Assembly: GCA_963848295.1 (NCBI GenBank)
Contig: CAWKDB010000010.1
Location: 32,001-96,000 of the forward strand
Direction of reading: 5' to 3'
Length of the DNA stretch: 64,000 bases
DNA from: an uncultured delta proteobacterium
GTDB taxonomy: Bacteria > Myxococcota_A > Polyangia > Haliangiales > Haliangiaceae
Part shown: positions 26,679 to 64,000 of the stretch, in pieces
How the letters are laid out: each line of letters opens with the position of its first letter
Numbering within the stretch: the first letter of the stretch is position 1
Notes under the pieces: generated by a model
Told to the model about the DNA's origin: nothing
The model's input: the letters and a program-made list of their open reading frames with translations, nothing else
The model's database searches: none
Position numbers and translations under genes: made by a program

Positions 26679-26703
26679 TCCCGCTTCCGATCGTCTAACT
26701 ACG

Positions 26704-41044: not shown

Positions 41045-42067
41045 ATGCATGATCCCGGCGCTGATAACGGATCTGCTGGAAATCTAGACGGAATTCGCGA
41101 AGGGCTGCCCCGCTGGGGGATGGTCAAAGGCGTCGCGACCGGGGCGGTCATCGAGGTCCCGGCGATCGCAGGCGCGGTCTGGTTGCTCGCACGTGTCGGC
41201 GTGGGCAATCGCGCGGAGCCGTACCTGGCCGATCTGAGGCTGACCGCGGTGTTCGCCGGGGTCGCCGCGCTCGTCACCGCGGCCGGGCTCGGCCGGCTCG
41301 CTGCGGTCGCGTCGCTCGACGGCGGCCGCCGGCACGCGATGACAGTCACCGCGCGAGCTCATGCCGCGGCGTCGGCCGCACTCGTGCTGATCGCTGCGAT
41401 CCCGCACGGCGAGCTGCCCGATCACGCGCTCGGCTATGTACCGTTCTTGCTCGGCGGCGCGGTCGTCGGCGCGCTGTGCGGCGCGGTGATCGGCGCGATA
41501 TGCGGCGGCGCGGCGCCGGTGGGAATCGCCGATGTCGTCGCGCTCGCCCGCCGGCCTAGCGAAGCGTTGCGCCAGCTCCTCGATCCGGATGACCTCGTGA
41601 AGATCGGCACGGCGCTGCGCGAACGCACGAGCCACTTGTTGAGCGGGATGTTCGAGCCCGGCCCCAAGCCGCCGAGCGAGCACGACGAAAAGCCACCGCC
41701 CGACGACAAGTCGGGCGAACGCCCGACGCGTAGCGCCGCCGAAGGCGGAGCGAAGGTCGACGACAAGTCGGGCGAACGCCCGACGCGTAGCGCCGCCGAA
41801 GGCGGAGCGAAGGTCGACGACAAGTCGGGCGAACGCCCGACGCGTAGCGCCGCCGAAGGCGGAGCGAAGGTAGACGACAAGTCGGGCGAACGCCCGACGC
41901 GTAGCGCCGCCGAAGGCGGAGCGAAGGTCGACGACAAGTCGGGCGAACGCCCGACGCGTAGCGCCGCCGAAGGCGGAGCGAAGGTAGACGACAAGTCGGG
42001 CGAACGCCCGACGCGTAGCGCCGCCGAAGGCGGAGCGAAGGTAGACGACAAGGTCGAGCCGCCGTGA
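41045..42067 (+). CDS. Membrane protein with C-terminal 19-aa tandem repeats
   Basis: Four hydrophobic helices, then (DDKSGERPTRSAAEGGAKV)x6. Confidence 0.75.
   Translation: MHDPGADNGSAGNLDGIREGLPRWGMVKGVATGAVIEVPAIAGAVWLLARVGVGNRAEPYLADLRLTAVFAGVAALVTAAGLGRLAAVASLDGGRRHAMTVTARAHAAASAALVLIAAIPHGELPDHALGYVPFLLGGAVVGALCGAVIGAICGGAAPVGIADVVALARRPSEALRQLLDPDDLVKIGTALRERTSHLLSGMFEPGPKPPSEHDEKPPPDDKSGERPTRSAAEGGAKVDDKSGERPTRSAAEGGAKVDDKSGERPTRSAAEGGAKVDDKSGERPTRSAAEGGAKVDDKSGERPTRSAAEGGAKVDDKSGERPTRSAAEGGAKVDDKVEPP
41702..42052 (+). repeat. 57-bp tandem repeat x6 plus 9 bp; double-hairpin unit
   Basis: Units start at 41702, 41759, 41816, 41873, 41930, 41987 and differ at one base; stems GTCGGGCG/CGCCCGAC and CCGCC-GAA-GGCGG. 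Confidence 0.95.
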
Positions 42068-42921
42068 CGAACGAGCAGTCCGATCGAACCGCGCCGCCCT
42101 TCGCCGGCGCGGCTGGTCGGGGGCGAGCCTCGACCGTCGAGGTACGCACGCTCGCGATCGCGTTGCTCGCTTCGCTGCTGCTGTGGAACCTGCCGTTCGG
42201 CGGCGTCGTGCTCTACCCGTTCAAGCTGCTCGCGACCTGGCTACACGAGCTGTCGCATGGTCTCGCGATGATCGTGACCGGCGCGGGGCTCGACCACGTC
42301 GAGATCTATCGCGACACGAGTGGGCTGGCGTATCCGAGCGCCGGCACCGGCGCGTTCGGCAGCGCCGTGATCGCGGCGGCCGGCTACATGGGCACGCCTC
42401 TGTGGGGCGCGCTGCTGCTCGTGATCACGCCGACGCCGCGCGCGGCGCGAACCGCGTTGCTCGTGCTCGCCGGGTTGTTGCTGCTGACCGTCGTCACCGT
42501 GATCACGCCGACCCCGCAGGGGGACGTGCTCGGCCGGTGGGCGCTCGTCGCGATCGCCGCGGCGTTCGCGGTCGCCGCGACCGTCGTACCGGCGCGCTGG
42601 CGGCTCCACGTCGCGCACTTCGTCGCCGCGCAGGCCTGCGTCAACGCGCTACTCGACATCCGCGTGTTGCTCCGGCCATCGCAGGTCGTCGGCGGCAACG
42701 TGACGAACGCGTCGGACGCGCAGAACATGGCGGCGGCGACGTTCGGCACGACCGCGACCTGGGCCGTGTGGACGTGGGCGATCGTGTGGCTCCTGTGGTC
42801 GCTCGCGGTGCTGTTCGTCGCGCTGCGGCTCGTGCGCGCTCGAGCGACGCCGAACGACGATGGCGAGGACCGTCAGCGCGACGAGGCGATCGCGACCGAA
42901 CCGAGCAGTCCACCGAAATAG
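42064..42921 (+). CDS. M50B family membrane metallopeptidase
   Basis: HELSHG, AAGY, SDA motifs; multiple TMs. Confidence 0.85.
   Translation: MTNEQSDRTAPPFAGAAGRGRASTVEVRTLAIALLASLLLWNLPFGGVVLYPFKLLATWLHELSHGLAMIVTGAGLDHVEIYRDTSGLAYPSAGTGAFGSAVIAAAGYMGTPLWGALLLVITPTPRAARTALLVLAGLLLLTVVTVITPTPQGDVLGRWALVAIAAAFAVAATVVPARWRLHVAHFVAAQACVNALLDIRVLLRPSQVVGGNVTNASDAQNMAAATFGTTATWAVWTWAIVWLLWSLAVLFVALRLVRARATPNDDGEDRQRDEAIATEPSSPPK
42080..42140 (-). repeat. Coding double-hairpin element, copy in M50 peptidase N-terminus
   Basis: Reverse strand TCGACGGTCGAGG...CCCCCGACCAGCCGCGCCGGCGAAGGGCGGCGCGGTTCGATCGG; closely similar to 56676-56724. Confidence 0.8.
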
Positions 42922-45050
42922 CCTGGTGCGGCGCGAACGATCGTCTCGGGTGCGTACAGCGTCGCGAGCGCCACGCCGTTGCCGAGCGGTCGGGCGGCGA
43001 CGATCATGCGATAGCGCTGGCGATTGCCGAACGCGTCGGGGAGCTGCGCGACGAGCTCGCTACCGTGCCACGGCGCTGGCAAGGTGACGAGTGGATCGCC
43101 GGCCGCCTCGGTGGTCTCGAACTTGCGCTCGCGCGCTTCGCCCGGCGCACCCTTGGTCAAAGCGGCGAGCGGGCCACGGAGGTCGACCGAGCCCGGGGTC
43201 CAGCCGAAGCGACCCAACACCCACACATCGGGCGCGTAGATCTCGGTACCGGCGACGATCCACCCGGTCGGGGCGACGACGCTGAGGTCGCCAACCGTGC
43301 GGCGCGCGGTGGGCAGCGACGCGTAGCTCTCTGCGACCGACGTCCTCACGACGAGCACCGCGGTGGCGGCGACCGCGGCGGCGAACGCCAGCGCGATGAG
43401 CGGAGCGAGATAGCGCGACACGATCGCCCAGCGCGCATGCGGGGTCAGGGCGGCGCCCGCGAGCGCACCGACCACGAGGCCCGCGCCGTGCGCCCAGTTG
43501 TCGACCATCGGGTACAACATGCCGAACCCGACGAGCGCGACCAGCACGACGCCGATCCGCGCCCACATCCCGCGGCGCATCGCGGTGCGATACAGCCGGC
43601 GATACAGCGTGAGCTCGACGAACCCCGCGCCGAGCAACCCGAAGATCGCGCCCGACGCCCCGGCGGTGACGTCGATATCGCCGTAGTAGCTCGCGATCGA
43701 GCCGGCGATCCCGGCGAGCGCGAAGATCGCGATCGTGCGCACCGCGCCGAACATCTCCTCCGCGAAGCGGCCGACGAACCACAGCGCGATCGCGTTGAGC
43801 ACGAGGTGCACCGTGCCGACGTGGATGAAGATCGCCGCGACGATCCGCCACGGCTCCGCCGGGACGAAGCCATGCACGATCGCCCCGCCGCGAGTCAACG
43901 CGCCGAGATCGCTACCGTCGCCGATAAACAGCGAGATGCACGCGGCAGCGGCGATCATGATCGCGAGCAACGCCTGGGTCGCCCACGGTCCTTGTACGCG
44001 CGGCGGCCGGATCACCTTCGGCGCGGGCGCGGCCTCGACTCTCGCGACGATCTCTGTTGCCGCGCTGCCGAGCTCGGCGCGGCGAGCCGTCGGGAGCTCG
44101 GCGAGCGCTTTTTCGATCATGACGCGCGGCCGGCCACGCGATCGCGAGCGCGCCTTGTCGTAGGCGTCGCGGGCGGCGGGCTCGTCACCCCTGCGCTCGT
44201 GAGCGACCGCGAGCCAATACGTCCGCGCCGCCGCCGTCATGTGGCGCGAGCGCTTCGGCATGACGAGCGCTTCGACCGCATCGACCCGACCGGCGAGCGC
44301 GAGGAACATCAAGCGCCCGCGATGCAGCCACACCGCGGCGTCTTGCCGGCCCTCGCAGACATCTTCGAGTCGGGCGAGCATCGTCGCCGCGCGATCGAGA
44401 TCGCCTTTGCGGCCGTAAGCGCCGAGCAACTCGATCCACACCGGTGGTGCGATGCCGAGCGCGCGGCGCAGCGCGTTGCCGCCGTCGTCGGGAGGCGTCG
44501 CGCCGAACAGGTTTGCTTCAGCGTGAGCGATCGCTTCGTCCCAGCGATACGCGGCGAGGTACAACATCGCGATCCGCTCGTCGATCGCGAGCTTGGCTTC
44601 GGCCGGCGCGCGCTGCTTCGCCATCGTCAACGCGTCGACCGTCCGCTCGATCTTGCCGTCGCGGATCTCGCGCATCGCACCGAGCATGGCCTTCTCGTCG
44701 CCGGCGCCCGAGCCGGGTGCGAGCACATCGGCGACGTCGAGCAAGCGCGCGGCAACGCCGAAATGCTCGGCCGCCGCGAACCGGCGCGCGAGCGTGCGCA
44801 GCACGGGCCCCACGACGAACAAGCAGGCGCCCGCACCGACGCCGATCGCACCCGCGATGCCGAGCAGCTCGCTCTCGGTGTGGCGCCCGATCCAGCCGAG
44901 CGTCGACAGCGCCGCGGACGCCACGAGCATCAGCCCGAACGTGGGCGTGCCCTGCGGCTGCCGGCGGATGAAGAACCAGCCCCAGTAGCCGCCCGCGATC
45001 GCGACCGACATGAGCGCGAGCTCGTAGAGCAGCGACGCTTCGGAAGTCAT
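42873..45050 (-). CDS. Rhomboid intramembrane serine protease with TPR-like N-terminal region
   Basis: WRIV..IFIH....HLVLN, GASGAIFG, AHGAG. Confidence 0.9.
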   Translation of the reverse strand: MTSEASLLYELALMSVAIAGGYWGWFFIRRQPQGTPTFGLMLVASAALSTLGWIGRHTESELLGIAGAIGVGAGACLFVVGPVLRTLARRFAAAEHFGVAARLLDVADVLAPGSGAGDEKAMLGAMREIRDGKIERTVDALTMAKQRAPAEAKLAIDERIAMLYLAAYRWDEAIAHAEANLFGATPPDDGGNALRRALGIAPPVWIELLGAYGRKGDLDRAATMLARLEDVCEGRQDAAVWLHRGRLMFLALAGRVDAVEALVMPKRSRHMTAAARTYWLAVAHERRGDEPAARDAYDKARSRSRGRPRVMIEKALAELPTARRAELGSAATEIVARVEAAPAPKVIRPPRVQGPWATQALLAIMIAAAACISLFIGDGSDLGALTRGGAIVHGFVPAEPWRIVAAIFIHVGTVHLVLNAIALWFVGRFAEEMFGAVRTIAIFALAGIAGSIASYYGDIDVTAGASGAIFGLLGAGFVELTLYRRLYRTAMRRGMWARIGVVLVALVGFGMLYPMVDNWAHGAGLVVGALAGAALTPHARWAIVSRYLAPLIALAFAAAVAATAVLVVRTSVAESYASLPTARRTVGDLSVVAPTGWIVAGTEIYAPDVWVLGRFGWTPGSVDLRGPLAALTKGAPGEARERKFETTEAAGDPLVTLPAPWHGSELVAQLPDAFGNRQRYRMIVAARPLGNGVALATLYAPETIVRAAPGYFGGLLGSVAIASSR

Positions 45051-45065
45051 CGGGCCAAACCTAGA

Positions 45066-46061
45066 TCAACCCGTCTGCTCGACGAACTGGCCGATGCGGC
45101 GGAACTTCTGGTAGCGACGCTCGATGAGCTCGCTCGGCGTTAGCTGCGATAAATCTTTGAGGTGCGCCTTGATCGACTGCCGCAACTTCGCTGCGGTCAG
45201 CGCCGCGTTGCGGTGCGCGCCGCCGGGCGCCTCCGGAATGATCTCGTCGCAGATGCCGAGCTCGAGCAGGTCGGGTGCGGTGAGCTTGAGCTGCGAGGCC
45301 GCCTCCGCGATCTTCGCCGGGTCGCGCCACAGGATCGAAGCGCAGCCTTCGGGTGAGATCACCGAGTAGATCGAGTACTCGAGCATCAGGATCTTGTCGG
45401 TCACGCCGAGCGCGAGCGCGCCACCCGAGCCGCCTTCGCCAATCACGACCGAGATCAGCGGGCATTCGAGGCTCGCCATCACCTGCAGCGCCTTCGCGAT
45501 CGCCTCGGCCTGGCCGCGCTCTTCGGCGCCGAGCCCGGGATACGCACCTGGCGTATCGATGAAGCACAGGATCGGCCGGCGGAACCGCGAGGCCATCCGC
45601 ATCAACCGCGTGGCCTTGCGGTAACCCTCGGGCCGCGCCATCCCGAAGTTGCGATGCATGTTGTCCTTCGTGTTGCGGCCCTTCTGGTGGCCGAGCACGA
45701 GCACTTCCCATTCGTCGAATTGAGCGAGTCCGCCGATGATCGCCGGATCGTCGCGGAAGCTGCGATCGCCGTGCAGCTCGATGAAGTCGTCCATCAGCAG
45801 GCCGACGTAGTCCATCATGTACGGCCGCCCGGGGTGGCGAGCGAGCTGGACCTTCTGCTGCGCGGACAGGTCGGCGAACACTTCTCGTTGCAGCTTGCGC
45901 GCCTTCTGCTCGAGCTTGCGGATCTCGGACGAGAAGTCGACCGACTCGGTCGAGAGGTGATGCAGCTCGTGGATCTTGCGCTCGAGCTCGATGATCGGCC
46001 GCTCGAACTCGAGGATCATCCGGTCGGTGAGCAGCGGAGGCGGTTCGGTCGTCGTCGACAT
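45066..46061 (-). CDS. accA: Acetyl-CoA carboxylase carboxyltransferase alpha subunit
   Basis: LEFERPI, ARHPGRP, NFGMARPEGYRKA, IDTPGAYPG, GEGGSGGA. Confidence 0.97.
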   Translation of the reverse strand: MSTTTEPPPLLTDRMILEFERPIIELERKIHELHHLSTESVDFSSEIRKLEQKARKLQREVFADLSAQQKVQLARHPGRPYMMDYVGLLMDDFIELHGDRSFRDDPAIIGGLAQFDEWEVLVLGHQKGRNTKDNMHRNFGMARPEGYRKATRLMRMASRFRRPILCFIDTPGAYPGLGAEERGQAEAIAKALQVMASLECPLISVVIGEGGSGGALALGVTDKILMLEYSIYSVISPEGCASILWRDPAKIAEAASQLKLTAPDLLELGICDEIIPEAPGGAHRNAALTAAKLRQSIKAHLKDLSQLTPSELIERRYQKFRRIGQFVEQTG

Positions 46062-46067
46062 CGCGTT

Positions 46068-46979
46068 CTAGCGCCCTGCTAGGTACCGCCCAAGCGCGTC
46101 GGGGTCAACGGCCGCCGGGTCCGGGTACCAAGCGATGGCGGGATCAGGACGGTACCAAGATAGCTGACGCCGGGCGTAATGCCGTGAATTCCTTTTGACC
46201 AGCTCGATCGCGCGCGTGCGGTCGAGCCGCCCCTCCGCCACCGCGTGCAGCTCGGCGTAGCCGATCGCCTGCTGGCTGCGCAGGGGCGGCGTGTAACCCC
46301 GCGCGCGCAACGCGCCGACCTCGGCCTCGAGCCCGGCGGCGAGCATCGCGTCGACCCGCGCGTCGATCGCGGCATACAACGCCTCGCGCGGCGGCGATAG
46401 ACCCACGAGTTGCGCCGGATAGCGCGGCGGCTGCTTGCGATGGTCGTGGCGCGCCTGGTGGGCGCTCATCGGCTCGCCGGTGAGTCGGAACACCTCGATC
46501 GCGCGGATCATCCGCTTGCCGTCGTGCGGATCGATCTTCGCGGCGGCCGCGGGATCGACGCGCACGAGCTCGGCGTGCAGCTCGGCGGTCGGCAGCTGCG
46601 CCAGCTCGGCGCGCACCTCGGGAGACGCCGGCGGGCCCTCGAACAGGCCGAGCAGGAGCGCGCGGACGTACAGGCCGGTGCCGCCGCATACGATCGCCGG
46701 CACGTCGCGCACCGCGAGACTCTCGATCGCGGCGTCGGCGAGCGCGATGAACCGCGCCGCCGTCATCTCGTCGTCGGGATGCGCCACGTCGAGCAGATGG
46801 TGCGGCACCCGCGCGCGCTCGTCCGCGGTCGCCTTGCCGGTGCCGATGTCCATGCCGACGTAGACTTGCTGACTGTCGGCCGACACGACCTCGCCGCCGA
46901 TCTTCTCGGCGAGCGCGAGGGACAGGCGCGTCTTGCCCGCGCCGGTCGGCCCGACGATCACGACGAGGCGCGGCGCCAT
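46068..46979 (-). CDS. miaA: tRNA dimethylallyltransferase
   Basis: GPTGAGKT, DSQQVY, GGTGLY, QAIGY, YARRQLSW. Confidence 0.96.
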   Translation of the reverse strand: MAPRLVVIVGPTGAGKTRLSLALAEKIGGEVVSADSQQVYVGMDIGTGKATADERARVPHHLLDVAHPDDEMTAARFIALADAAIESLAVRDVPAIVCGGTGLYVRALLLGLFEGPPASPEVRAELAQLPTAELHAELVRVDPAAAAKIDPHDGKRMIRAIEVFRLTGEPMSAHQARHDHRKQPPRYPAQLVGLSPPREALYAAIDARVDAMLAAGLEAEVGALRARGYTPPLRSQQAIGYAELHAVAEGRLDRTRAIELVKRNSRHYARRQLSWYRPDPAIAWYPDPAAVDPDALGRYLAGR

Positions 46980-47112
46980 CCGCGCATTGTGGCACGGCGG
47001 CGAGAACCGCGGTTCGCCGTGGCCCCTCGCGCGCCGACTGTCAGATCGCGACGCTCGACCGGCTTGCGGGCCGAGCGTAGACCGACCGCGCACGTCGCGC
47101 GTTTCATCGCAC

Positions 47113-47589
47113 ATGCGCTTCCTCGCGTTCGCCTTGCCGCTGTGCCTCGTCACGTCGTTCGCGCATGCGTCACCGGCGTTCACATTCGCACAGCTGCTCC
47201 GGCGCGCCGACACGGTCGCGGTCGTGACGCTGACCCACCACGACGCGAAGCACGTCACCCTGTCGCAGACGACGGTCGTGCGCGGCGCGTTCGGCAAGGG
47301 CATCGTGTTGAAGGTCATCGGCGAGATCGCGCCGCCGGCTGACGTCACGACGTTCGTGGTGCTGTCCCAGCTCGATCCGCACATCGGCGCGCCGGAGCCG
47401 GTGGTGCGCATCGGCCAAGGCCTCGAGGGCCAAGCCGGCTATCTCGGGTTCTTGCTCTACCCGGTGCGGACGATCGGTGGCCGTGCGCAGATCGACCCGG
47501 CGTTCCTGATCAAGGCGGACGGCGCGATCGCGATCGACCAGCTTCCCGCGATCGCGAAGCGCGCGCCGTTTCGCCCGATCGGCGGCTAG
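47113..47589 (+). CDS. Secreted hypothetical protein
   Basis: Signal peptide MRFLAFALPLCLVTSFAHA. Confidence 0.6.
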   Translation: MRFLAFALPLCLVTSFAHASPAFTFAQLLRRADTVAVVTLTHHDAKHVTLSQTTVVRGAFGKGIVLKVIGEIAPPADVTTFVVLSQLDPHIGAPEPVVRIGQGLEGQAGYLGFLLYPVRTIGGRAQIDPAFLIKADGAIAIDQLPAIAKRAPFRPIGG

Positions 47590-49577
47590 CGCCCGAACCG
47601 GCGCGCGATCTCGGCGAGCGGCAGGCGCAGCATCAACGGGCGGCCGTGCGGGTTCGGCGCGTCGCCGACGCCGTCGAGCGCGCGCAGCAGCGCCTCGGTT
47701 TCGCCCGCCGACAGTCGATCGCCCGCGCGCACGACCGAGTGACACGCAATCTCGGCGAGCGCACTCTCGAGTTGCTCGGCGTCGCTCGGCGCACCTTCTT
47801 CGGCCCACCGGGCGAGCAGCGCACGCAGCAGCTCCGCCGGATCGCCGTGGCGGATCCCCGCCGGCACCGCGAGCAACGCGAGCGAGCCATCGCCGCCGAG
47901 ATCGGTCTCGAAGCCGACCTGCGCGAGCACGCCGCGCAGATCACTCGCGAGCTTCGCGAGCTCCGGCGCGACATCGATCGTCGCCGGGAACAGCATGCGC
48001 TGCATGCCGACCGCATGATCGGCATCGGCGGCCTTGAGCCGAGCGAGCTCGACGAGCTCGTGCGCGACGTGCTGATCGATCAGCACGAGCCCGGCGCCGG
48101 CCTCGCACACGAGGTATGTGAGATCCAGCTGGCCGAGGTAGCGCAGCTGCGCGAAGTAGCCCGGCTCGAGCTCGGCGCGCTCGGCCGCGGCATGGTCGAC
48201 CGGCCCGCTACCGAACGCGAGGGCCGGCGCCCGGTCGGCGACCGCCGCGGGCCGCGCGTAGGCGGCGCGCGCGTACGCCGCGGCTTCAGCAGCGCGCGAG
48301 CTCCGGCCGCGATCGCGGATGCCTTGGGCCCACTCCCGCGGCCCCGGGCCAGGAGTAAACCCGAGTTGCGCCTGCGCACCGCCGGACGCCCAACCGCGCT
48401 CGCGCGCGTGCTCAAGCTGGGCGCCGTAGCGCTGCGCTAACGGCGTCGCGACTCCGCCGTCGGGTAACGCGGGCGGCTGGACGCTCGTGATCGCGGTCAT
48501 CATCACCGGCGCCGCCGCATCGCTTCGCCACCCTGCCCGCGCGACGCCTGCTTGCACGACGTGGCGCACCGCCGCTGCGACCGCAGCCGCGTCGGCAAAT
48601 CGGACCTCCGACTTCTGCGGATGGACGTTGATATCGACCGCGCCAGCGGGAACATCGACGATCGCGATCGCGAGCGGATAGCGGCCGCGAGGCACGAGCT
48701 CGCCATAGCCCATCGCGATCGCGTGCAACAACCCACGGTCTTTCACCGGCCGGCGCCCGACGAACAGCTGAACGCCCCGCGCCGTCGTCTGCGCGAGATC
48801 CGGCGCACCGAGCAACGCGTGGACGCGGGTCGCACCGTCTTCACCTGATACCTCGACGAGCCGCGCGCTGACTCGCGGTCCGAGCAGCGCGCGCGCACGA
48901 GCCAACCGATCGCGATCCGGCGGGAGGTCGAGCGCGACTCGCCCGTCGTACGCGAGCTTGAGGTGAAGCTCGGGATGCGCCATCGCGACGCGCGCGACCA
49001 GGTCGGTGACGTGGGCCGCTTCGGTCGCCTCGCCGCGCAAGAACTTGAGCCGAGCCGGCACCGCGCGAAACAGCTCGTGGACCTCGACCGTCGTACCGAC
49101 CGGGGCGCCGGCCGCGCTGACGTCTGCGACCCGCCCCGCATCGACCGTGATGCGCGTCGCCGCGAGCTCGCCGGCGACCCGGGTGGTCAGCACGAGCCGC
49201 GCGACGCTCGCGATCGCCGGCAGCGCCTCGCCGCGAAACCCGAGCGTCGTCAACCCCCACAGGTCGTCGACACTGCGCAGCTTCGAGGTCGCGTGGCGCT
49301 CGAGTGCGAGCACCGCGTCGACCGCAGACATGCCACAGCCGTCGTCGACGACGCGGATCACGCTGCGGCCACCGCCGACGACCTCGACCGCGATCGTGCG
49401 CGCGCCGGCGTCGATCGCGTTGTCGACGAGCTCCTTGACCACCGATGCCGGCCGCTCGATGACCTCGCCCGCGGCGATCTGGTCGATCACGGTCGAGGGC
49501 AAGAGCTCGATCGTGGGGACCTGTGCCCGACGATCAGCACCGCCGGAGGGCGGTGCGGTTGGATCGAACGCGGGCAT
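47586..49577 (-). CDS. mutL: DNA mismatch repair endonuclease MutL
   Basis: QIAAGEVIERPASVVKELVDNAIDAG, HATSK, GFRGEAL, DQHVAHE, ACH, PHGRP. Confidence 0.96.
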   Translation of the reverse strand: MPAFDPTAPPSGGADRRAQVPTIELLPSTVIDQIAAGEVIERPASVVKELVDNAIDAGARTIAVEVVGGGRSVIRVVDDGCGMSAVDAVLALERHATSKLRSVDDLWGLTTLGFRGEALPAIASVARLVLTTRVAGELAATRITVDAGRVADVSAAGAPVGTTVEVHELFRAVPARLKFLRGEATEAAHVTDLVARVAMAHPELHLKLAYDGRVALDLPPDRDRLARARALLGPRVSARLVEVSGEDGATRVHALLGAPDLAQTTARGVQLFVGRRPVKDRGLLHAIAMGYGELVPRGRYPLAIAIVDVPAGAVDINVHPQKSEVRFADAAAVAAAVRHVVQAGVARAGWRSDAAAPVMMTAITSVQPPALPDGGVATPLAQRYGAQLEHARERGWASGGAQAQLGFTPGPGPREWAQGIRDRGRSSRAAEAAAYARAAYARPAAVADRAPALAFGSGPVDHAAAERAELEPGYFAQLRYLGQLDLTYLVCEAGAGLVLIDQHVAHELVELARLKAADADHAVGMQRMLFPATIDVAPELAKLASDLRGVLAQVGFETDLGGDGSLALLAVPAGIRHGDPAELLRALLARWAEEGAPSDAEQLESALAEIACHSVVRAGDRLSAGETEALLRALDGVGDAPNPHGRPLMLRLPLAEIARRFGR
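49507..49567 (+). repeat. Coding double-hairpin element, copy in MutL N-terminus
   Basis: TCGATCGTGGGG...CCCGACGATC-A-GCACCGCC-GGAG-GGCGGTGC-GGTTGGATCGA; TCGA ends 57 bp apart. Confidence 0.8.
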
Positions 49578-49641
49578 AGCGCTGGCGTACCACGGCGATC
49601 TGACGTGGAGCCGGCACTCCCGCTGGTGTATAGAAGCCTCG

Positions 49642-53474: not shown

Positions 53475-53478
<4 letters not shown>
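52792..53478 (+). CDS. Lipoprotein with InlB B-repeat-like domains
   Basis: AGC lipobox; GSGTG.V....I.C...C...Y..G..ITLT....S.F.GW...C pattern. Confidence 0.7.
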
Positions 53479-54884
<1,406 letters not shown>

Positions 54885-54980
54885 ATCGAGGCCGCTCGGG
54901 ATTTGCGCACGCGTGGGTCATCTTGCCTGGCCGCGCGATATCGCGGGCGCGTTGGAACGGCCGTGTTATCGTGGACGCAA

Positions 54981-55523: not shown

Positions 55524-55599
55524 ACGAGCTCCCCGCGTCCGGCGATCGCCGGGACGCTACGAACAGGCGCGGCGATCCGTCACTTGCTATGATCCAGAC

Positions 55600-56523: not shown

Positions 56524-56527
56524 CGCC

Positions 56528-58075
56528 ATGCAGCGCGCGGGCTTCGCGATCGGCGCGGCGCTGATCGCGGTCGGCTTCGCGCTCCCGCACCTGCGCCGCG
56601 TGTTGATCGCCGACGTCGTGACCTGGGACGCCGAACCGAGCGAGCCAGCGCAGCTGCCGGTGGGCGCCGGTCGGGGCCTGCCCCCGGCCGGCAGCGCCGC
56701 CGAAGGGCGGCGCGGTTCAATCGACGGTCCGGGGCTGGCGCCGACCGCCCGCACGCGCGTGCTCTTGATCGACGGGCTCGCTGCCGACGTCGCCGCGACC
56801 CTCCCGGCGTGGACCGAGACGTGCGCGCGCGGCGTCGCGGTGACCGTCGACGTCGGGTTCCCGACCGTGTCGCTGCCGGTCGAGGTCGCGCTGTGGTCGG
56901 GGCTCACCCAGCAGCAGACCGGCGTCGTCGGCCATCAGGGGCGGCCGCTCGTGCCGCCGCTCGATCGCCGCGCGATCCCGGCGCAGGTCGCGGGCAGCCG
57001 TGCGCTCGCGGAGAACCACGGTTACATCGTGCGCTCGCTCGGGTTCGCGACCGCGGAGCCGGCCGCCGCCGCCGATGGCCTCGGCGACGCCGATCTCGAG
57101 CATTGGGCGGCGCAGTTCGAGCCGCGCGCGATCGCTGCGGTCGCGAGTGATGCGGCGCTGGTGTTCGTCCACATCTTGCGCGTCGATAACGCCGGCCATC
57201 GCTCCGGCAAGGACTCGGATCAGTACCGCGACGCCGCACAGCGAGCCGATGCGCTGCTCGCGAGGCTCGTCGCCGCGGCGGGCAGCGACGCGCGCTGGTT
57301 CTTGCTGTCCGACCACGGCCACCTGCCGGGCGGCGGTCACGGCGGCGCGGAGCGCGTGATCCGTCAGGTCGCCGGCTGCATTGTCGGCCCCGGGCTCGCG
57401 CCGAACGCAGCGCATCCGGTGATCCACGTCGTCGACATCGCGCGCGCGATCGCCGATTCGGTCGGCGCGAAGCTCGACCCGGCGTCGCGCGGTCGCCCGC
57501 TGTCGGTCGCGTTGCGGGTTCCGCTCGTCGATGACGAGGCGCTGCCGAGTCAACCGATCGTGCCCGCCGCGCTCGCGATCGTGATCGTCGTGCTCGGGGC
57601 GGCGGCGATGGCGTGGGCCAGCGCGCGGTGGTGGCTCGCCGCGTGGTGGTGGCTGCTCGCGTGCGCCGCGCTCGTCGTCGTCCGCGGCGTCCCGACGCTA
57701 TCGAGGCCGATGATCTACTCGCCGGAAGGCCGCACGATGTGGCTCGCGTGGTCGCCGCTGCTCGCGGTCGCGTGCGTGATGACGTACGTCGCGCTCGGGC
57801 GCACGACGCTGTGGCGCGCGGTCACCGCGCAGCTCGCGCTACCGTTCGCGGCGGCCGCGGCGGCGATCACGGCGTGCGGCGGCTGGCCCGCGGTGTTCGG
57901 TGCCGAGGTCGCGCCGGTCGTGCCGCACTACACCGCGTGGATGTCGCCGCTCGTGCTCATGGCTGCGCAGGGGGCGGCGGCGGTCGGCCTTGCTGTTCTC
58001 GGAAAGTCTTGCCGGCAGGCGATCGATCGACGCGGACGTCCGGAATCGCCGCGTACATCGAGAGCAGGCGCTTGA
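56528..58075 (+). CDS. Alkaline phosphatase superfamily membrane protein
   Basis: LLIDGL, FPTVSLP, VDNAGH, LSDHGH, GGHGG; C-terminal TMs. Confidence 0.8.
   Translation: MQRAGFAIGAALIAVGFALPHLRRVLIADVVTWDAEPSEPAQLPVGAGRGLPPAGSAAEGRRGSIDGPGLAPTARTRVLLIDGLAADVAATLPAWTETCARGVAVTVDVGFPTVSLPVEVALWSGLTQQQTGVVGHQGRPLVPPLDRRAIPAQVAGSRALAENHGYIVRSLGFATAEPAAAADGLGDADLEHWAAQFEPRAIAAVASDAALVFVHILRVDNAGHRSGKDSDQYRDAAQRADALLARLVAAAGSDARWFLLSDHGHLPGGGHGGAERVIRQVAGCIVGPGLAPNAAHPVIHVVDIARAIADSVGAKLDPASRGRPLSVALRVPLVDDEALPSQPIVPAALAIVIVVLGAAAMAWASARWWLAAWWWLLACAALVVVRGVPTLSRPMIYSPEGRTMWLAWSPLLAVACVMTYVALGRTTLWRAVTAQLALPFAAAAAAITACGGWPAVFGAEVAPVVPHYTAWMSPLVLMAAQGAAAVGLAVLGKSCRQAIDRRGRPESPRTSRAGA
56666..56724 (+). 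repeat. Coding double-hairpin element, copy in alkaline-phosphatase-family gene
   Basis: GCCGGTCGGGG..CCCCGGCCGGC-A-GCGCCGCC-GAAG-GGCGGCGC-GGTTCAATCGA; encodes AGRGLPPAGSAAEGRRGSID. Confidence 0.8.
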
Positions 58076-60101
58076 CGATGTCGGGGTGCTGGGCGGCGAG
58101 GTCGTCGTGCTCGGCCGGATCGCGCTCGAGGTCGTAGAGCTCGGTCAGGTTGTCGGCCGGCTTGACGATGAGGTGATACGGCCACACGACCGCGCCGTGC
58201 TGCTTCTCTTCGTGCAACGCGATCGCGCGCTCGGTGACGCGCAGCGCGGGGGGCGCATCGAGCAACGCGGGCACGAGATCGACGCCATCGAGCGGCGCCA
58301 TCGCGGTCGCCGCGCCGAGCAGATCGAGCAACGTCGGCGCGATGTCGACCAGCGACACCGGATCGACGCGCTGGCCGGGCGCGACGCCGGGCACGTAGAT
58401 CGCGAACGGGATCCGCACGAGCGGGCCATAGGTCACCTCGCCGTGGGTCTCCGGGAACCGCGGATCTTCGCCGAGCGACTCGCCGTGGTCGCTGAGGAAC
58501 ACGACGATCGTGTGATCCGCCTCGTGCCGCGCGTCGAGCTCGGCGAGGACCTCGCCGACTCCGTCGTCGATCGCGTGGAGCAGCGCGCGATAGCCGTGAG
58601 CGACCGGCGAGCCGCCGTCGTGAACGAGCGCGAGCAACGGCTTCGGCACATCGATCTGATGGTGCTCGTGGACGTCGAAGTAATGCAGCCAGATGAAGAA
58701 CGGCTCGGCGGCGACCGCCTGCACGCCGACCTCGGTCGTCGCGGCCGCGCTGACGTGGTCGCCGACATCCGCGACCTGGCCGTCGGTGCGCACCGTCGTG
58801 AAGTGATCGACGCCGCGGCGGATCAGCGTGTCGCCGACGAACCGCGTGACCTCGCCAGGAATCGCCGCCGAGGTCTGGCGGCCGAGCGCGTGCAGCGCGT
58901 CGATCAGCGTGGCGCGCGTCGGCTGGTACGGATCGAACCGGCCGGTGAGCAACGTGGACAGCGAGACATCGGTGCCGGAGGCCGGCGCGATCGCGTGGGT
59001 GAACCATACCGAATCGTCGAGTAGCTTCGCGATATGCGGGAAGTCGGCGCGATCGGGGGCACCCGGCGCGAGTGGATCGAAGCGCAACGCGTCGACCGTG
59101 ATCAGGAGGACGTTCATCGTCTTGGTGCGGGCCAGCACGCTCTGGACCGCCGGCGATGCGCGCCAGCCCTGGAGATCGAGCGGTTTCGGCTTCGGCGGGG
59201 GTGGCGGTGCCGGCATCGCATCGAGCCCGTCGCAGTTTTGATCGATGCCATCGCCGGGGATGTCGATCGCGCCGGGATGGATCGCGGGATCGAAGTCATC
59301 GCAATCGCCACCGCCGAGGATCGGCGACGCCCCATCGCGATCGAAGTCGACGAGCCAGCGCCAGGTCGCGACCAGATCGCGGCTCTGGTCACCGAACGTC
59401 GCGAGTTGCTCGCGATCCGCCGGCACCTGTAGGCCGTAGCACGCCGCCGCCGCGCCCGTGCCCACCGCGAGCCCCGCGATCACGGCCGCAAACGCCACCG
59501 GCACGGTCGCCCGCCGCGTGATCCGCAGCGCGACGCCGAGCACGACGATGATCGCGATCGTCACGCCTTGATGCGCGCTCGGATAGCCGGTGCGCAACAG
59601 CTCGCGCTCGCCGTAGATCAGCCCGGACGCGGTCGCGGCGAGCAGCAGCACGACCGTCGCGCGCCACATCAGATCGCCCGAGCGCAGCATCCGCCGGCCG
59701 ATCGCGATCGCGACCGCCGAGATCAGCCACAGCACGAGCGGCAACGCCCACGGCGCGTACTTCGCATAGGACAACGTCTGCGCGAACGCCCCGTCGAACA
59801 GCGTGGCACACACCGGCGCGGTGACCGCCGCGGTCGGCGCGCTCAACGCGAGCGCGACGAACCACCACGGCGCGCGCCGGACGAGCAGCGAGATCACCGC
59901 GATGACGCAGCCGACGATCAACCCGGTGAACGCGAACACCGGCGGAATCGCTAGGCTCAGGCCGACGCGATCGAGCCGGACCGCTTCGAGGACCCCGACC
60001 GCGAGCGCGGCGAGCACGTGGGCGCTGATGATCCAGCCGATCGGGATGGGGTCGGGTCGCGCCGGGGTGCGACCGGCGACGCCGGCTGCGCGCGAGGACA
60101 T
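57957..60101 (-). CDS. Sulfatase-like hydrolase/transferase with TM region and Asp/Cys metal-binding motif
   Basis: DCDD..PAIHPGA..IPGDGIDQNCDG; NVLLITVDALRFD, WLHYFDVH, SDHGE. Confidence 0.85.
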   Translation of the reverse strand: MSSRAAGVAGRTPARPDPIPIGWIISAHVLAALAVGVLEAVRLDRVGLSLAIPPVFAFTGLIVGCVIAVISLLVRRAPWWFVALALSAPTAAVTAPVCATLFDGAFAQTLSYAKYAPWALPLVLWLISAVAIAIGRRMLRSGDLMWRATVVLLLAATASGLIYGERELLRTGYPSAHQGVTIAIIVVLGVALRITRRATVPVAFAAVIAGLAVGTGAAAACYGLQVPADREQLATFGDQSRDLVATWRWLVDFDRDGASPILGGGDCDDFDPAIHPGAIDIPGDGIDQNCDGLDAMPAPPPPPKPKPLDLQGWRASPAVQSVLARTKTMNVLLITVDALRFDPLAPGAPDRADFPHIAKLLDDSVWFTHAIAPASGTDVSLSTLLTGRFDPYQPTRATLIDALHALGRQTSAAIPGEVTRFVGDTLIRRGVDHFTTVRTDGQVADVGDHVSAAATTEVGVQAVAAEPFFIWLHYFDVHEHHQIDVPKPLLALVHDGGSPVAHGYRALLHAIDDGVGEVLAELDARHEADHTIVVFLSDHGESLGEDPRFPETHGEVTYGPLVRIPFAIYVPGVAPGQRVDPVSLVDIAPTLLDLLGAATAMAPLDGVDLVPALLDAPPALRVTERAIALHEEKQHGAVVWPYHLIVKPADNLTELYDLERDPAEHDDLAAQHPDIVKRLLSMYAAIPDVRVDRSPAGKTFREQQGRPPPPPAQP

Positions 60102-60230
60102 CGGTCGATCTGACCACGGCGTGGCTCGCCGTGGCAACTAGCCTACGCCTCCGTACCGGAGGGCCTTCGGACCAGGGATTCGGCCATCCTTGCTGCGCCG
60201 GACCGCCGAGCGATCGATCGTCCTGGGACC

Positions 60231-60785
60231 TCAGGCCTTCGGCGGATACTTCTGGAGCTTGCGCTGCAGGCTGCGGCGGTGAATTCCGAGCCGGCGCGCG
60301 GCCTCCGAGATATTGCCGCCCGCGTCGGACAGCACGCGGTTGATGTGCTCCCACTCGGCGCGAGCGAGCGACGGGGCGCGATAATCGCCGGAGTCGGGCG
60401 GCGGCGGCTCGAGCGGCGGCGCTTCACCTCGGGCGAATGCGCCGATGATGTCGTCGGCATCGGCCGGCTTCGACAGGTAGTAGGTCGCGCCGAGCCGCAC
60501 CGCGTCGATCGCGGTCGCGATGCTGCCATACCCCGTCAACACGACGATCTTGGTCGCCGGGTCGATCTCGCGCAGCGCCTTGACCAGCTCGAGCCCGCTC
60601 TTGCCCGGCATCTTGAGGTCGACGACCGCGAGCTCCGGCGAATCGCTGGCCGCAGCCGCCACGCCGGCGTCGTAGTCACCGCCGGTCCGGACGTCATAGC
60701 CGCGGTCGGTGAACGCGCGGCCGAGCCGGGTGCGATAGACCTCATCGTCGTCGACGATCAGGATCGATAGCTCTTGCTCGCCCAT
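60231..60785 (-). CDS. regA: RegA/PrrA-type response regulator
   Basis: VDDD, LTGYGSIATA, WEHINRVL...GNISEAARRLGIHRRSLQRKL. Confidence 0.9.
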   Translation of the reverse strand: MGEQELSILIVDDDEVYRTRLGRAFTDRGYDVRTGGDYDAGVAAAASDSPELAVVDLKMPGKSGLELVKALREIDPATKIVVLTGYGSIATAIDAVRLGATYYLSKPADADDIIGAFARGEAPPLEPPPPDSGDYRAPSLARAEWEHINRVLSDAGGNISEAARRLGIHRRSLQRKLQKYPPKA

Positions 60786-60862
60786 GGCCGTTGGATACCA
60801 CCACCTGTGAGATCGATGCACGCATAGTGAACGCCCCTGCACGACCGCGACATCGCTGGTGT

Positions 60863-62149
60863 TCACGGGATCGATCGCGCCGACCTAGCGGCATCGGTCG
60901 GCAGCTCGACGCGGACCTCGGTGCCGTGCGCGCCCGAATCGATCCGCAGCGTGCCGCCGACGCCCTCGATCACCGCGCGCGCGAGGAACAGCCCGAGCCC
61001 CATGCCGCGGCCCGGTGCCTTCGTCGTGTAGAACGGCTCGCCGATCCGCGCCATGACGTCGGCCGGGATCCCGGGCCCGCGGTCGCGAATGGCGACATCG
61101 AGCACGTCGCCGCGGCGGCCAGCAACGACGACGACCGCGGCGGCCGCCGGCGAGGCATCTTGCGCGTTCGTCACGAGCGACCGCAACGCTTGGCTCACCG
61201 CGCGAGGCGGCAAGCGCAACGGTGATTGCCCGACATCGTCGCTGAGCTCGCGCACCACGCTCGGCGATTCGCGCACGCCCACGAACGCCTCGTCGAGCAG
61301 CTCGCGCACGGTGCAAGACGCGACGTTCTCCCCGACCGTCCCGGCGCCCTGCGCCATCTGCTCGAGGATCGTCCGGCACCGGCCGACCTGCTCGCGGATC
61401 AACCGCGCATCCGCGGCGAGCCCGGCCTGATCGCCGAGCGCGTGCTCGAGCTCCTTCGCGGCGAGTGCGACCGTGCCGAGCGGCGTCGATAGCTCGTGGG
61501 CGGCACCGGCGGCCATCGTCGCGAGCGAGGCGAGTCGCTCTTGGCGCGCGGCGAGGCTACGCGCGAACGTCAGCTCGGTCTCCCGCGTCGCGAGCGCGCC
61601 GGTGATCCGCAGCAAGAAATACACGACGAACGCGGACGCGACCCCGAGCGCGACCCACATGCCGATCATCCGGCTGTCGTCGGGAATCACGAGCGGTTCG
61701 TGCGACAGCAGCAACAACCCGAAGCCGAGGAACGACAGGCCGACCAGCATCCACGTCCACCGCGCGCGCATCAGCACCGCGGCGAGCGCGATCTGCACGA
61801 GATAGAGAAAGCTGAACGGATTGTTGGGGCCGCCGGTGAAGTAGAGCAGCGCGGTGAGCAGCGCGATGTCGAGCGTCATCACCCCGGCGAGCTGCCACTC
61901 CGCAACCTCGCGGTGCGCGATCGCGTCCCCGCGACCGAAGAACCGCCCGCGATCACCGAAGTAATAGAGCTCGATCACGAGGTTCGACACCAGGCCGATG
62001 CCGATCACTGCGAACAGCGGAGCGATCGGGAGCCTGCCCCCGAGCAGGACCTGGCCGACCAAGACGGTCGCAGCCTGGCCCGCGAGCTCGGCCCAGCGCA
62101 GCCGCGCGAGCCACTGAATATTGACCCAGTTGCGTGCAGGAATGCTCAC
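60863..62149 (-). CDS. regB: RegB/PrrB-type sensor histidine kinase
   Basis: LRW, TGGPNNPF, AAHELSTPL, GEPFYTTK, GMGLGLF. Confidence 0.88.
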   Translation of the reverse strand: MSIPARNWVNIQWLARLRWAELAGQAATVLVGQVLLGGRLPIAPLFAVIGIGLVSNLVIELYYFGDRGRFFGRGDAIAHREVAEWQLAGVMTLDIALLTALLYFTGGPNNPFSFLYLVQIALAAVLMRARWTWMLVGLSFLGFGLLLLSHEPLVIPDDSRMIGMWVALGVASAFVVYFLLRITGALATRETELTFARSLAARQERLASLATMAAGAAHELSTPLGTVALAAKELEHALGDQAGLAADARLIREQVGRCRTILEQMAQGAGTVGENVASCTVRELLDEAFVGVRESPSVVRELSDDVGQSPLRLPPRAVSQALRSLVTNAQDASPAAAAVVVVAGRRGDVLDVAIRDRGPGIPADVMARIGEPFYTTKAPGRGMGLGLFLARAVIEGVGGTLRIDSGAHGTEVRVELPTDAARSARSIP

Positions 62150-62171
62150 GCCGCACCCTGCACGGCTAACC

Positions 62172-63050
62172 CTACTTGGCCATCGTCGGCTCGAGCGACT
62201 TCAGTCCCTTGTCCAGCACCCACTGCTGGTAGTACTGCGCCGCCGGGGTCCCGGACGCGATCCGGTCGTTCGCCTTCTTCAGCTCCTCGTCGATCAGCGT
62301 GGTGAAGTTCTCGATCGGCATCGCGCCCGACATGAACCGGCCGTTGATGAAGAACGACGGGGTCGCGGCGACGCCGAGCTGCTGCAGGTCTTTCTGATCC
62401 TTCTGGATCAGGGCGTTGCATTCCTTCATGTCGGCTTTGAACTTGTCGGCGTTCATCCCGAGGTCGGTCGCGAACCCGAGGACGATCGGGCAACCCGCCT
62501 CGCTGTCCCAGCACCGCTTGGCCGGGCCACCGCCTTCGCCCGGTGCGTCCTTGTCGAACTGACGGCCCTTGAACCCCTTGTCCCACAGCGCGTTGTCCAT
62601 CTGATCGAACTTGCCCTGCCGGCTCGCGGCGCACGACGCCAGCGCGCCCGCGGTCGCGACCTGCGGATGGACGACGTACTGCTTGTAGACGATGCGGAGG
62701 TCGTTGCCGTACTTCTTCTTCAGCTCTTCCATCGTGTCGCGCACCCTCTCGCAGTACGGACAGGCGTAGTCGTAGGCCTTGACGAGCGTGACCTTGGCAT
62801 CGGCCGGGCCGTCGAACGGGTCGCCGTCGATCGGCATCGCGTAGGTCTTCGCGCGATCGGGCTCCGGGCGCTGGGGCCGCTGCTGGCCGCCGGCGCCGCG
62901 GCCGCCGTTCGCGATCAACTGGTCGAGCTTCTTGTCGACGCGCTCGAGTAGCGCGTGATCGGCCTTGAGCTGATCGTGGTCGGCCTCGTTCCCGTCGGCG
63001 GTACACGCGACCAACGACAACGCGGCAATGGTCATAACTAGTTTGTTCAT
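62172..63050 (-). CDS. DsbA / thioredoxin-fold lipoprotein
   Basis: LVAC lipobox; CPYC; ATPSFFING. Confidence 0.88.
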   Translation of the reverse strand: MNKLVMTIAALSLVACTADGNEADHDQLKADHALLERVDKKLDQLIANGGRGAGGQQRPQRPEPDRAKTYAMPIDGDPFDGPADAKVTLVKAYDYACPYCERVRDTMEELKKKYGNDLRIVYKQYVVHPQVATAGALASCAASRQGKFDQMDNALWDKGFKGRQFDKDAPGEGGGPAKRCWDSEAGCPIVLGFATDLGMNADKFKADMKECNALIQKDQKDLQQLGVAATPSFFINGRFMSGAMPIENFTTLIDEELKKANDRIASGTPAAQYYQQWVLDKGLKSLEPTMAK

Positions 63051-64000
63051 CGCACGACTCCTTCGACTTGCTGACAAGTGTTCACGGACGGGGTCCCGGC
63101 GTTCATCAGCTCCGGGGTTGTAGCCTCAGGCTGGTCGCAATTGCAACACAGCGGTTCGTCGAGCAAAGACTCGAGCTCGGCCGCAGCATACGGATCGAGC
63201 GTCGATACGAGCTCGTCCTGGCGGGCGCGCAGCTGCGCTTGCAGCTCGCACGCTTCATCGCGCGACAACACCCCGTCGCCATCGAGGTCGGCCTCGGGGT
63301 GCGCGAGCATGAGCTTCGCGGCGAGCTGCGGGGTGTACCGACACGCGATGCGAGCGGCGGACGCGCCGGCGGTACGGGCGCCGCCGAGCACGACCGCGAC
63401 CCACGCAGCGAGCGCGAGCGTGTAGCCGAGGCCCGAGCGACGTGCCGCAGGCGGCCCTAGCACGGCGCGGACGCGGGCGTCGAGCGCGCGCGGCATCGCG
63501 AGCGCGAGCGAGCCATCGATCCACCCGCGCCGGCGTTCGGCGGCGCTGCCGGCGAGGGTTCCCTCGCCGTCGAGGTGGAGCGCGGCCATCCGCACGAGCA
63601 ACCGCGCGTAGGTCGGACGCGGCAACTCGCCCGCCTCCACGGCCCAGGCATCGCACGCGGCCTCGCGTGCGAGCTCGAGCCGGCGACTCGCGAGCAGCGC
63701 GACCGGCCACCAGAAGAACGCGGCGCACGCGACGAGCTGAAATGCGCGACCGATCGCATCGCGGCGCCGCACGTGCGCGAGCTCGTGCAACAGCGCCGCG
63801 CGCAGCAACGCGGGCTCGGCGACGAGCACCGCCGGAACGACGATCGTCGAGTGCCACCCGCCGACGACATGCGGCCCCGATGCCGCGACGACCAGCCGCG
63901 GTACGGGCAACTTCGCGCGCCGAGCGAGCTCTGCGAGCAGCGCGAGGGCAGCAAACGGAGCTGGCTTCGCGAGCCGCGCGGCGCGGGCGAGCCGGTGCGA
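63047..64000 (-). CDS. M56 (BlaR1/MecR1) family peptidase with EF-hand-like motif (partial, start beyond window)
   Basis: LLHELAHVRRRD, REAACD; DLDGDGVLSRDE. Confidence 0.85.
   Translation of the reverse strand, partial: SHRLARAARLAKPAPFAALALLAELARRAKLPVPRLVVAASGPHVVGGWHSTIVVPAVLVAEPALLRAALLHELAHVRRRDAIGRAFQLVACAAFFWWPVALLASRRLELAREAACDAWAVEAGELPRPTYARLLVRMAALHLDGEGTLAGSAAERRRGWIDGSLALAMPRALDARVRAVLGPPAARRSGLGYTLALAAWVAVVLGGARTAGASAARIACRYTPQLAAKLMLAHPEADLDGDGVLSRDEACELQAQLRARQDELVSTLDPYAAAELESLLDEPLCCNCDQPEATTPELMNAGTPSVNTCQQVEGVVR
63516..63573 (-). repeat. Coding double-hairpin element, copy in M56 peptidase gene
   Basis: TCGAC-GGCGAGGG-AA-CCCTCGCC-GGCA-GCGCCG-CCGAACGC-CGGCGC-GGGTGGATCGA; TCGA ends 54 bp apart; encodes GSAAERRRGWID. 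Confidence 0.8.

Follow-up and report, generated by a model that had tools for sequence, protein, structure and literature searches.

How does a short palindromic sequence come to lie, in frame, within one unrelated gene after another of a bacterial genome? The question is raised by a 64,000-nt stretch of DNA (hereafter the window; positions 32001–96000 of contig C10) from a free-living soil myxobacterium, whose 7.78-Mb assembly, G000, is 85% complete. An earlier note on this DNA had placed in it four dispersed double hairpins and one tandem array of a related unit, and had proposed that they are non-autonomous mobile repeats. All five features lie where it put them, with the third dispersed copy registered here as 56664–56724, and the proposal is supported by exact pairs of empty and filled sites between G000 and a close relative, G113. 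We conclude that these repeats, mostly 57 nt long, form a mobile, recently active family, and from the genomes available, that the family is lineage-restricted and near absent outside one genus (g1). As to how they move, we give about equal weight to belief and disbelief in a route through folded single-stranded DNA (ssDNA), cut and joined by a Y1/HUH transposase acting in trans.

The evidence for mobility begins with G113, which is ~90% identical to G000 and 90% complete, and in which the sites of all four dispersed window copies are empty. Copy c1 (42080–42140, − strand) occupies codons 7–25 of a Peptidase_M50B gene (42064–42921, +), antisense to it, and corresponds to an exact 57-nt gap in G113. 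Copy c2 (49507–49567, +) is antisense in mutL (47586–49577, −), the sole mutL found in the G000 assembly, where it separates the initial MPA from the conserved IxLLP motif; G113 reads MPAPIAVLPS here. The 57-bp copy described earlier in mutL is present, but the site is only 54 nt longer than in G113. Copy c3 (56664–56724, +) is in the sense orientation and internal to a Phosphodiest/alkaline-phosphatase-like gene (56528–58075, +), and bears GCGC on its left in place of TCGA, in keeping with the earlier remark that this copy has no left TCGA; G113 shows an exact 57-nt gap and the empty site GGCGAC. Copy c4 (63516–63573, −) is a 54-nt variant with a shorter stem 1, in the sense orientation and internal to a Peptidase_M56 (BlaR1-like) gene (63047–64000, −) that ends at 63047 and has its 5′ end beyond the window; the gap in G113 is exactly 54 nt. 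Alignment to more distant orthologues, a check that had been suggested at the outset, gave a similarly clean picture: all 13 of the 13 orthologues of the c3 host lack 19 aa, four of five orthologues of the M56 protein lack 18 aa (13 aa in the fifth), and solved CobA/NirE methyltransferase structures lack exactly 19 residues at the cobA insertion site. Because the distant orthologues of the 56.5-kb gene and the solved methyltransferases are empty, we take the empty state to be ancestral.

The same picture holds beyond the window. From 76 of the 92 pattern hits in G113 we obtained 79 distinct copies. For 61 of them both flanks could be matched to an orthologous G000 site, and of these sites 27 are exact 57-nt gaps, seven are other gaps of at least 45 nt, and 27 are shared or partial. 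For the second family described below (family B), 12 of 15 G113 loci have a G000 orthologue, eight of the 12 are empty, and five of the eight differ by exactly 57 nt. No two G000 loci are identical, and nearest neighbors differ at 1–15 of 53 nt. Array copy number differs between G000 and G113 at the same site (four vs. one; two vs. three), which indicates that arrays expand or shrink after insertion. In four sequencing runs no listed joint skips an element, although these contigs have low depth and the observation carries no weight either way. In-place rewriting of shared copies was also considered and is unsupported, as shared copies diverge no faster than their coding flanks (0.12 vs. 0.09, p 0.33, 14 sites).

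A profile hidden Markov model built from the four dispersed copies gave 122 matches at E ≤ 1e-4 in G000 and none in the reversed genome. The iterated model of this family, family A, finds 193 copies (E ≤ 0.01) at 168 loci, 11 of which are arrays, again with no match in reversed G000, so that the further copies foreseen in the earlier note exist and chance matching does not produce them. Each unit runs from TCGA through an 11-pair stem 1, a single A, stem 2 (8 pairs closing a loop of four bases), and a tail GGTTNGA, to the next TCGA at 57 nt. The variable stem 1, short linker, and stem 2 first described are thus recognizable and pairing is indeed kept, but the linker is one base, so that the stems practically abut, and stem 1 has a clear consensus. 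Among 139 measurable copies the core-to-core distance was 57 nt in 99, 54 in 6, and 60 in 4, as measured by a script that favored values close to 57. The ends are asymmetric and lack terminal inverted repeats. At the 5′ foot of stem 2 stands a tetranucleotide tag, GCAG in 62 of 95 loci and TCAG in 19. Loop 2 fits cGNABg in 84 of the 95 loci and the RNA-type GNRA in one; cGNABg is called a stable DNA tetraloop in the title of a reference listed in PMC3201870. Stem 1 can be extended, with the left CG opposite tag positions 2 and 4 (G3–C29 in 92 of 95 loci). A gCNNGc DNA tetraloop was tried for loop 1 and rejected (48 of 95 loci), and the likeness of the tail to a tRNA T-loop or an integron core was dropped, as the tail is not conserved across subfamilies.

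The tandem array (41701–42052, +) comprises 6.2 head-to-tail double-hairpin units according to a tandem-repeat finder (TRF) and the family B model, with period 57, 98% identity, a GTAG tag, and GACAA ends. It lies in frame near the 3′ end of an open reading frame (ORF; 41045–42067, +) for a membrane protein with no Pfam family above cut-off, where it reads DKSGERPTRSAAEGGAKVD; it is missing from 10 of 10 distant orthologues, and G113 has an array at the same site. It had been grouped with the dispersed copies, and the relationship and the 57-nt geometry stand, but the family A model gives no match to it, and it belongs to a family of its own, family B, with its own ends. Seeded from the tandem unit alone, the B model finds 36 copies at E ≤ 0.01 (none reversed) at 20 loci in G000. 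Their 57-nt length and layout are those of A, but the tag is GTAG, loop 2 has three bases, and the ends are GACAA. Relatives carry an intermediate, B′, with a B-like body, a GCAG tag, and ATCG ends, and such intermediates relate the tandem unit to A as a sister family. All 12 period-57 arrays of G000 belong to A or B, and grouping is head-to-tail. Relatives also carry subfamilies of 54- and 60-nt units, the latter at L448, L468, L472, L477, and L482 in G074 and at L545–L569 in G111, whose stem-2 loops vary from 1 to 5 nt. That lengths are multiples of three, as first suggested, is the rule, but arrays with periods of 56, 58, and 61 occur in relatives.

Both stems are maintained by compensating change. 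In an alignment of 20 copies from several genomes, 87% of cells are paired and two-sided changes occur at 13 of 19 pairs; none of 500 shuffles reached this level, and slid controls gave 28–52%. Kinship among the sequences could inflate the shuffle test, although the slid controls nevertheless reached only those values. Across 95 loci, Watson–Crick pairing in stem 1 was 0.79 vs. 0.61 after permutation.

The junctions were examined in the 27 exact empty–filled pairs, with three further pairs left out for non-standard register. Empty family A sites carry T in 18, C in 25, G in 23, and A in 23 of the 27. Bases upstream agree with the left flank and bases downstream with the right one, the changeover being inside TCGA; in sites whose left T is replaced, the right one persists. 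The left and right cores are identical at positions 0, 1, and 4 as often as expected and no more, which means that variable target bases are not duplicated. The cut can be placed within CG(A), and no finer, and the left end has CG in 106 of 111 loci. Empty B sites have CAA in 8 of 8 and ACAA in 7 of 8 cases. In both families the target resembles the element's own junction (TCGAY in A, GACAA in B). Neither TCGA nor the palindrome HIP1 is over-represented in G000 beyond its sub-words (observed/expected 0.99 and 0.98).

What do such insertions do to the genes that receive them? We excised in silico 92 of the 168 loci, namely the full-length registered units, called genes with a self-trained dicodon model, and restored the units. 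In this tabulation of coding against intergenic location, 57 loci are internal to genes, 18 lie within 30 codons of the called start, 7 are near the stop, and 10 are intergenic. The genic share (82 of 92, or 89%) equals that of random TCGA sites (90%, p 0.72), and thus genes are not avoided. The reading frame stays open in 82 of 82 genic insertions, on either strand, compared with ~89% per insertion by chance (p ~7e-5), which bears out the claim that copies sit inside ORFs without breaking them. Insertion phase follows that of TCGA itself (62:17:3 vs. 2116:527:66). Insertions are over-represented at N-terminal sites (p 3e-5), and copies antisense to the gene make up 54 of the 82 genic ones vs. 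49% expected from target composition (p 0.003); since the caller errs at starts, having given the mutL copy to an opposite-strand ORF, the N-terminal and orientation counts are approximate. Among 16 selected host proteins scanned against NCBIfam, Era, RecG, EF-G, TrpB, CinA, PhzF, PgeF, CobA, and MutL scored above cut-off, and a UvrD/PcrA-like helicase below it. For EF-G and Era, the match to solved structures is interrupted at the insert. Judging from the open frames, the inserts are likely translated as loops of 18–20 residues rich in Gly, Ala, Pro, and Arg.

Some host genes bear more than one copy. At C10:2342473–2343935 (G113 locus L145), two adjacent siroheme-synthesis genes each have a family A copy, shared with G113, and two copies each are found in a gene at C2:116226, putatively Lhr-like by its motifs, and in genes at C10:1625306, C10:2876722, and C2:1211701.

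The distribution of the family is narrow. Of 147 genomes of the order, 20 match the family A pattern, and all 20 belong to g1, with no match in a backwards control; counts are 107 in G000, 92 in G113, 59 in G052, 45 in G056, 25 in G067, and 1–5 in fifteen others. The B pattern occurs in 25 of the 147 genomes, likewise in g1 only, and G010 and G061 have no A or B pattern match. A covariance model, applied to relatives as had been suggested and scoring at most 34 candidates per genome, finds matches (E ≤ 1e-4) in 53 of the 91 genomes of g1; outside the genus there is one weak match in each of six genomes. In GTDB the exact family A pattern occurs at 65 loci, of which 52 are by title Kofleriaceae, 11 Deltaproteobacteria bacterium, and 2 Acidobacteriota bacterium. 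Viral contigs gave no match, and in metagenomes the full unit is present in 120 of 122 loci among the matches listed.

Dispersed copies, exact empty and filled sites, a junction in the CG core, covarying stems, and open frames are what we observe. To account for them we propose, with confidence balanced evenly against doubt, that these 57-nt elements are non-autonomous passengers that move as folded ssDNA and are cut and joined by a Y1/HUH transposase, similar to the REP-associated tyrosine transposases (RAYTs) of repetitive extragenic palindromic (REP) sequences, which is probably encoded elsewhere in the genome. Insertion is into short targets, TCGA for A and GACAA for B. Stem 2, together with the tag at its foot (GCAG or TCAG in A and GTAG in B), would serve as the enzyme's putative binding site and guide, and stem 1 would bring the left junction back onto the guide (C2–G31, G3–C29, A30 bulged), which would explain why pairing is kept while the sequence drifts. 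The right cut would fall ~10–14 nt beyond stem 2. Since the unit is a multiple of three and stop-poor, genic insertions would survive in tolerant places, and arrays probably form later, by local slippage or recombination between repeated ends.

The guide is where this proposal can be compared with known enzymes. GYAG is given as a variant of the GTAG tag of REPs (PMC3733652), and for a TnpA-REP, tag positions 2 and 4 are reported to select the cut dinucleotide, GTAG giving CA and GTAC giving GA (PMC8266576). Applied here, this rule would predict CG for NCAG and CA for GTAG; CG is the core in A and B′, and CA is contained in the GACAA ends of B. A CA-containing end repeat is found in 33 of 46 GTAG-tagged vs. 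7 of 41 GCAG-tagged elements (Fisher p 4e-7), a p value overstated by the single lineage split that underlies it (A and B′ vs. B) and its exceptions. A more ambitious version, which we put forward tentatively and think improbable as a whole, is a self-guiding minimal ssDNA transposon: hairpin 2 would bind a free-standing HUH enzyme, with no REPtron, hairpin 1 would fold the left end onto the guide, a GCAG-to-GTAG change would retarget the element from CG to CA at constant length, and insertion without gene avoidance would have placed loops in hundreds of proteins of one genus.

An enzyme of this kind was sought beside the elements. Each of the five element-rich genomes examined has Y1 genes, and Y2, IS110, reverse transcriptase, and small GIY-YIG genes were searched for in the same five. 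The earlier note had suggested an HUH transposase flanked by the same hairpins, and none was found among their Y1 and Y2 genes. A Y2 match occurs in G000 only, on an island in the window; the Y2 loci show no A or B match, and so the elements do not group with IS91-type systems. IS110 gave no match in any of the five genomes. Reverse transcriptase matches occur in three, including G000, and in neither of the other two, one of which is G113, and no copy adjoins a reverse transcriptase gene. No copy lies alongside the small GIY-YIG genes. Close copy pairs are more frequent than expected (21 vs. 11), and no mobile gene was recognized in translations of the genes between them. Recurrent neighbors of element loci in genomes and metagenomes belong to kinase, ABC, and sigma-54 families only, and an apparent cluster of 12 neighbor loci proved to be the element's own peptide. 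None of the multi-copy insertion sequence (IS) elements of G000 bears these ends, and no stray stem-2 motif occurs outside the A and B catalogues. In sum, no mobilizer was found beside any copy in searches that covered Y1, Y2, IS110, reverse transcriptase, and GIY-YIG, and not serine or tyrosine recombinases, TnpB, or Cas1.

Several observations made along the way stand apart from this question. A Y1/HUH family with a YVLNNWRKH-type motif occurs at C10:3806686, C10:3657430, C2:329944, C2:1374078, C10:261569, C10:1439320, and other sites, with 1–40 matches per genome and a common AT-rich upstream word; neither A nor B hairpins flank it. Another multi-copy group of proteins, marked by an HHH motif (C2:1134452, C10:3663593, C10:3947029, C10:3189404), is absent from those PF01797 matches that were read as proteins, and is possibly another HUH family. 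The island is integrative (17119–26775 of the window), with a tyrosine integrase (17119–18501), a tRNA (26704–26775), two divergent IS91-type Y2 genes at 19970–21355 (−) and 21462–22550 (+), and a Transposase_29 gene (23291–25549, −). The Y2 match of the first Y2 gene is limited to the first 31 profile positions, and the second has no zinc-finger match. On contig C10, the GC skew changes sign near 3.0 Mb, likely at a replication origin or terminus.

A number of results weigh against an ssDNA transposase as the mover. Copies lie beside none of 25 Y1 matches in the five element-rich genomes, no Y1 match lies within 429 element-bearing loci, and 55 Y1 loci (one of them from G010) yield only one partial B-like match (E 8e-4) and one marginal match. 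The genomes searched are 77–96% complete, and a cognate Y1 gene could be missing from the assemblies. The Y1 family, found in carriers and non-carriers of elements alike, is present in 89 of the 91 genomes of g1. Contig C10 shows no replichore strand bias (31:29 and 23:19). The CG departs at the right end in 17 of 111 loci vs. 5 of 111 on the left, and agreement with the empty site is lower at bases −3 to 0 (75 of 108 cases) than further out (122 of 135; p 6e-5); such altered bases at the left junction are not what a precise enzyme would predict. The link between tag and junction is one evolutionary contrast, and several GCAG-tagged B copies retain CAA ends. The base 5′ of CAAG covaries with the tag through plain stem pairing, and the cut could lie on either side. 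The excess of G–T over A–C (70:39) stems from two positions (32:31 without them), and the G111 subfamily departs from GNAB in loop 2.

Another account has no dedicated enzyme: replication would stall at the hairpins, or a structure-specific nuclease of the host would be drawn to them, and a switch of template between the target's short core and its match in a donor copy would carry the unit to the new site. We regard it as the most serious competitor and still doubtful. It would need no mobilizer beside any copy, and is in line with the likeness of the target to the element's own junction in both families, with the more frequent alteration of junction-adjacent bases than of distant ones, and with the change of array copy number between G000 and G113. 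On the other hand, insert length is exact in most empty–filled pairs; the tag, stem 2, and their spacing are conserved over diverged 54-, 57-, and 60-nt subfamilies, which suggests that a protein reads them; B′ copies begin CGCAAG, yet their targets lack CAAG; and a process of the host alone sits poorly with a family near absent beyond one genus. An RNA route, by reverse transcription of a short structured transcript or by its templating of break repair at TCGA, we think distinctly unlikely. The top strand folds more stably under both RNA and DNA parameters, copies are diverse, and G000 has reverse transcriptases, but G113, at its 90% completeness, is one of the two rich genomes with no such match, and no copy lies by a reverse transcriptase gene. 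The antisense excess among genic copies also speaks against it, as do loops that match neither GNRA nor UUCG on either strand and an Rfam scan of the window at gathering score that returned only a tRNA and matched no element to a known structured RNA.

Movement of double-stranded DNA, through an IS110- or serine-type crossover at the CG core or as a MITE (a miniature transposable element bearing inverted repeats) with a short target duplication, is very unlikely in our judgement. The 2–3-bp core common to both ends would fit a crossover, but IS110 has no match in any of the five rich genomes, terminal inverted repeats and duplicated variable target bases are lacking, G000 offers neither a multi-copy IS with these ends nor a stray stem-2 motif outside the catalogues, and such enzymes do not need covarying hairpins. 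We give hardly any credence to the last alternative, an immobile peptide module or RNA signal held by selection at fixed sites. It would account for the frame kept in all genic copies, for the antisense preference beyond target composition, and for shared copies that diverge no faster than their flanks; however, both orientations and three phases are used, at the phase ratio of TCGA itself, and with about half of the G113 sites empty in G000, the empty–filled pairs largely refute it. The transposase-driven ssDNA route remains, at even confidence, the reading we prefer.

The phenomenon itself has precedents, and A and B are set apart from these by their descriptions in the portions of the literature we consulted. 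Rickettsia palindromic elements (RPEs; Ogata 2000, 2002, via PMC10969869) are ~150 bp long, with 44 copies first reported, nearly half in ORFs. They are palindromic repeats that lie in frame in unrelated genes and are read as peptides, as A and B probably are, with no mobilizer named (PMC10969869). In-frame insertion into unrelated genes and absence from orthologues are common to both; this is a likeness of kind, the families being compared by description. Here, however, the unit is 57 nt with two abutting hairpins, there are 168 loci, 89% of full-length loci are genic, the target is TCGA, and the host is free-living. REPs tagged with GTAG and associated with RAYT/TnpA-REP, including the intragenic REPs of Opitutus terrae and Thauera (PMC3733652, PMC6006769, PMC8266576), likewise carry GTAG/GYAG where a short GC hairpin has its 5′ foot (GTAG in B, GCAG/TCAG in A), occur both singly and in tandem groups, and have in-frame copies in genes for repair and translation; the guide rule for the cut dinucleotide may also be common to them. 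As described there, REPs are mostly intergenic, occur as inverted pairs, and flank a RAYT gene. In contrast, A and B have a fixed length and a second, unrelated hairpin, do not avoid genes (82 of 92 genic), form no inverted dimers of the bacterial interspersed mosaic element (BIME) or REPIN kind, and flank no cognate Y1 gene.

Other comparisons are looser. Terminal inverted repeats and target-site duplication, the marks of DDE-type MITEs, are both missing. A derivative of IS200/IS605 would be expected to have an autonomous parent, of which there is none in G000, and IS608 is reported to insert with a lagging-strand bias (PMC6006769), a replichore bias absent here. The small dispersed repeats (SDRs) of cyanobacteria (Elhai 2008) are ~20 bp long, and SDR5 inserts precisely in HIP1 (PMC4390886, PMC2884548); like A and B they are very small, possibly mobile, and tandem-forming, but their target and structure, as described, differ. 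Double-hairpin elements (DHEs) of fungal mitochondria (Paquin 2000, via PMC10085805), compared by description only, are likewise small, GC-rich, and potentially mobile with two hairpins, but are organellar and mostly intergenic or in rRNA genes. Ssn nucleases with their NTS/SRM repeats (PMC11893778) resemble the system proposed here in that dispersed ssDNA hairpin repeats are read by a small enzyme, but no copies adjoin the small GIY-YIG genes found in the five rich genomes. Our literature search, in which most subscription journals were outside scope, returned no account of such repeats in Kofleriaceae or Myxococcota.

G000 holds further repeats. Another family has the cores GACAAAAGAGACAGCGTC (an 18-mer, 75 copies) and CAAAGTGAACACCGTCCC (49 copies). 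A multi-copy cassette of two divergent genes of 106–107 aa beside simple repeats occurs in about ten copies (C2:610202, C2:860408, C2:1180068, C2:1461442, C10:511332, C10:727190, C10:1501135, C10:4854344, C11:317012, C11:441373), and a 50-nt GC-rich tandem repeat of 7.7 copies that is neither A nor B lies at C10:2935754–2936149.

The sources cited here still treat the movement of RPEs and other protein-coding palindromes as an open question. The present family supplies dozens of exact empty–filled pairs, a single genome that holds two sister families of differing target, and a guide prediction that could be tested by a cleavage assay. For those who annotate these genomes, the inserts will mislead the assignment of start codons and domains. 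For the organisms themselves, the family would be a steady source of new loops of 18–20 residues in core proteins such as MutL, EF-G, Era, RecG, and CobA, if the inserts are translated as their open frames suggest.

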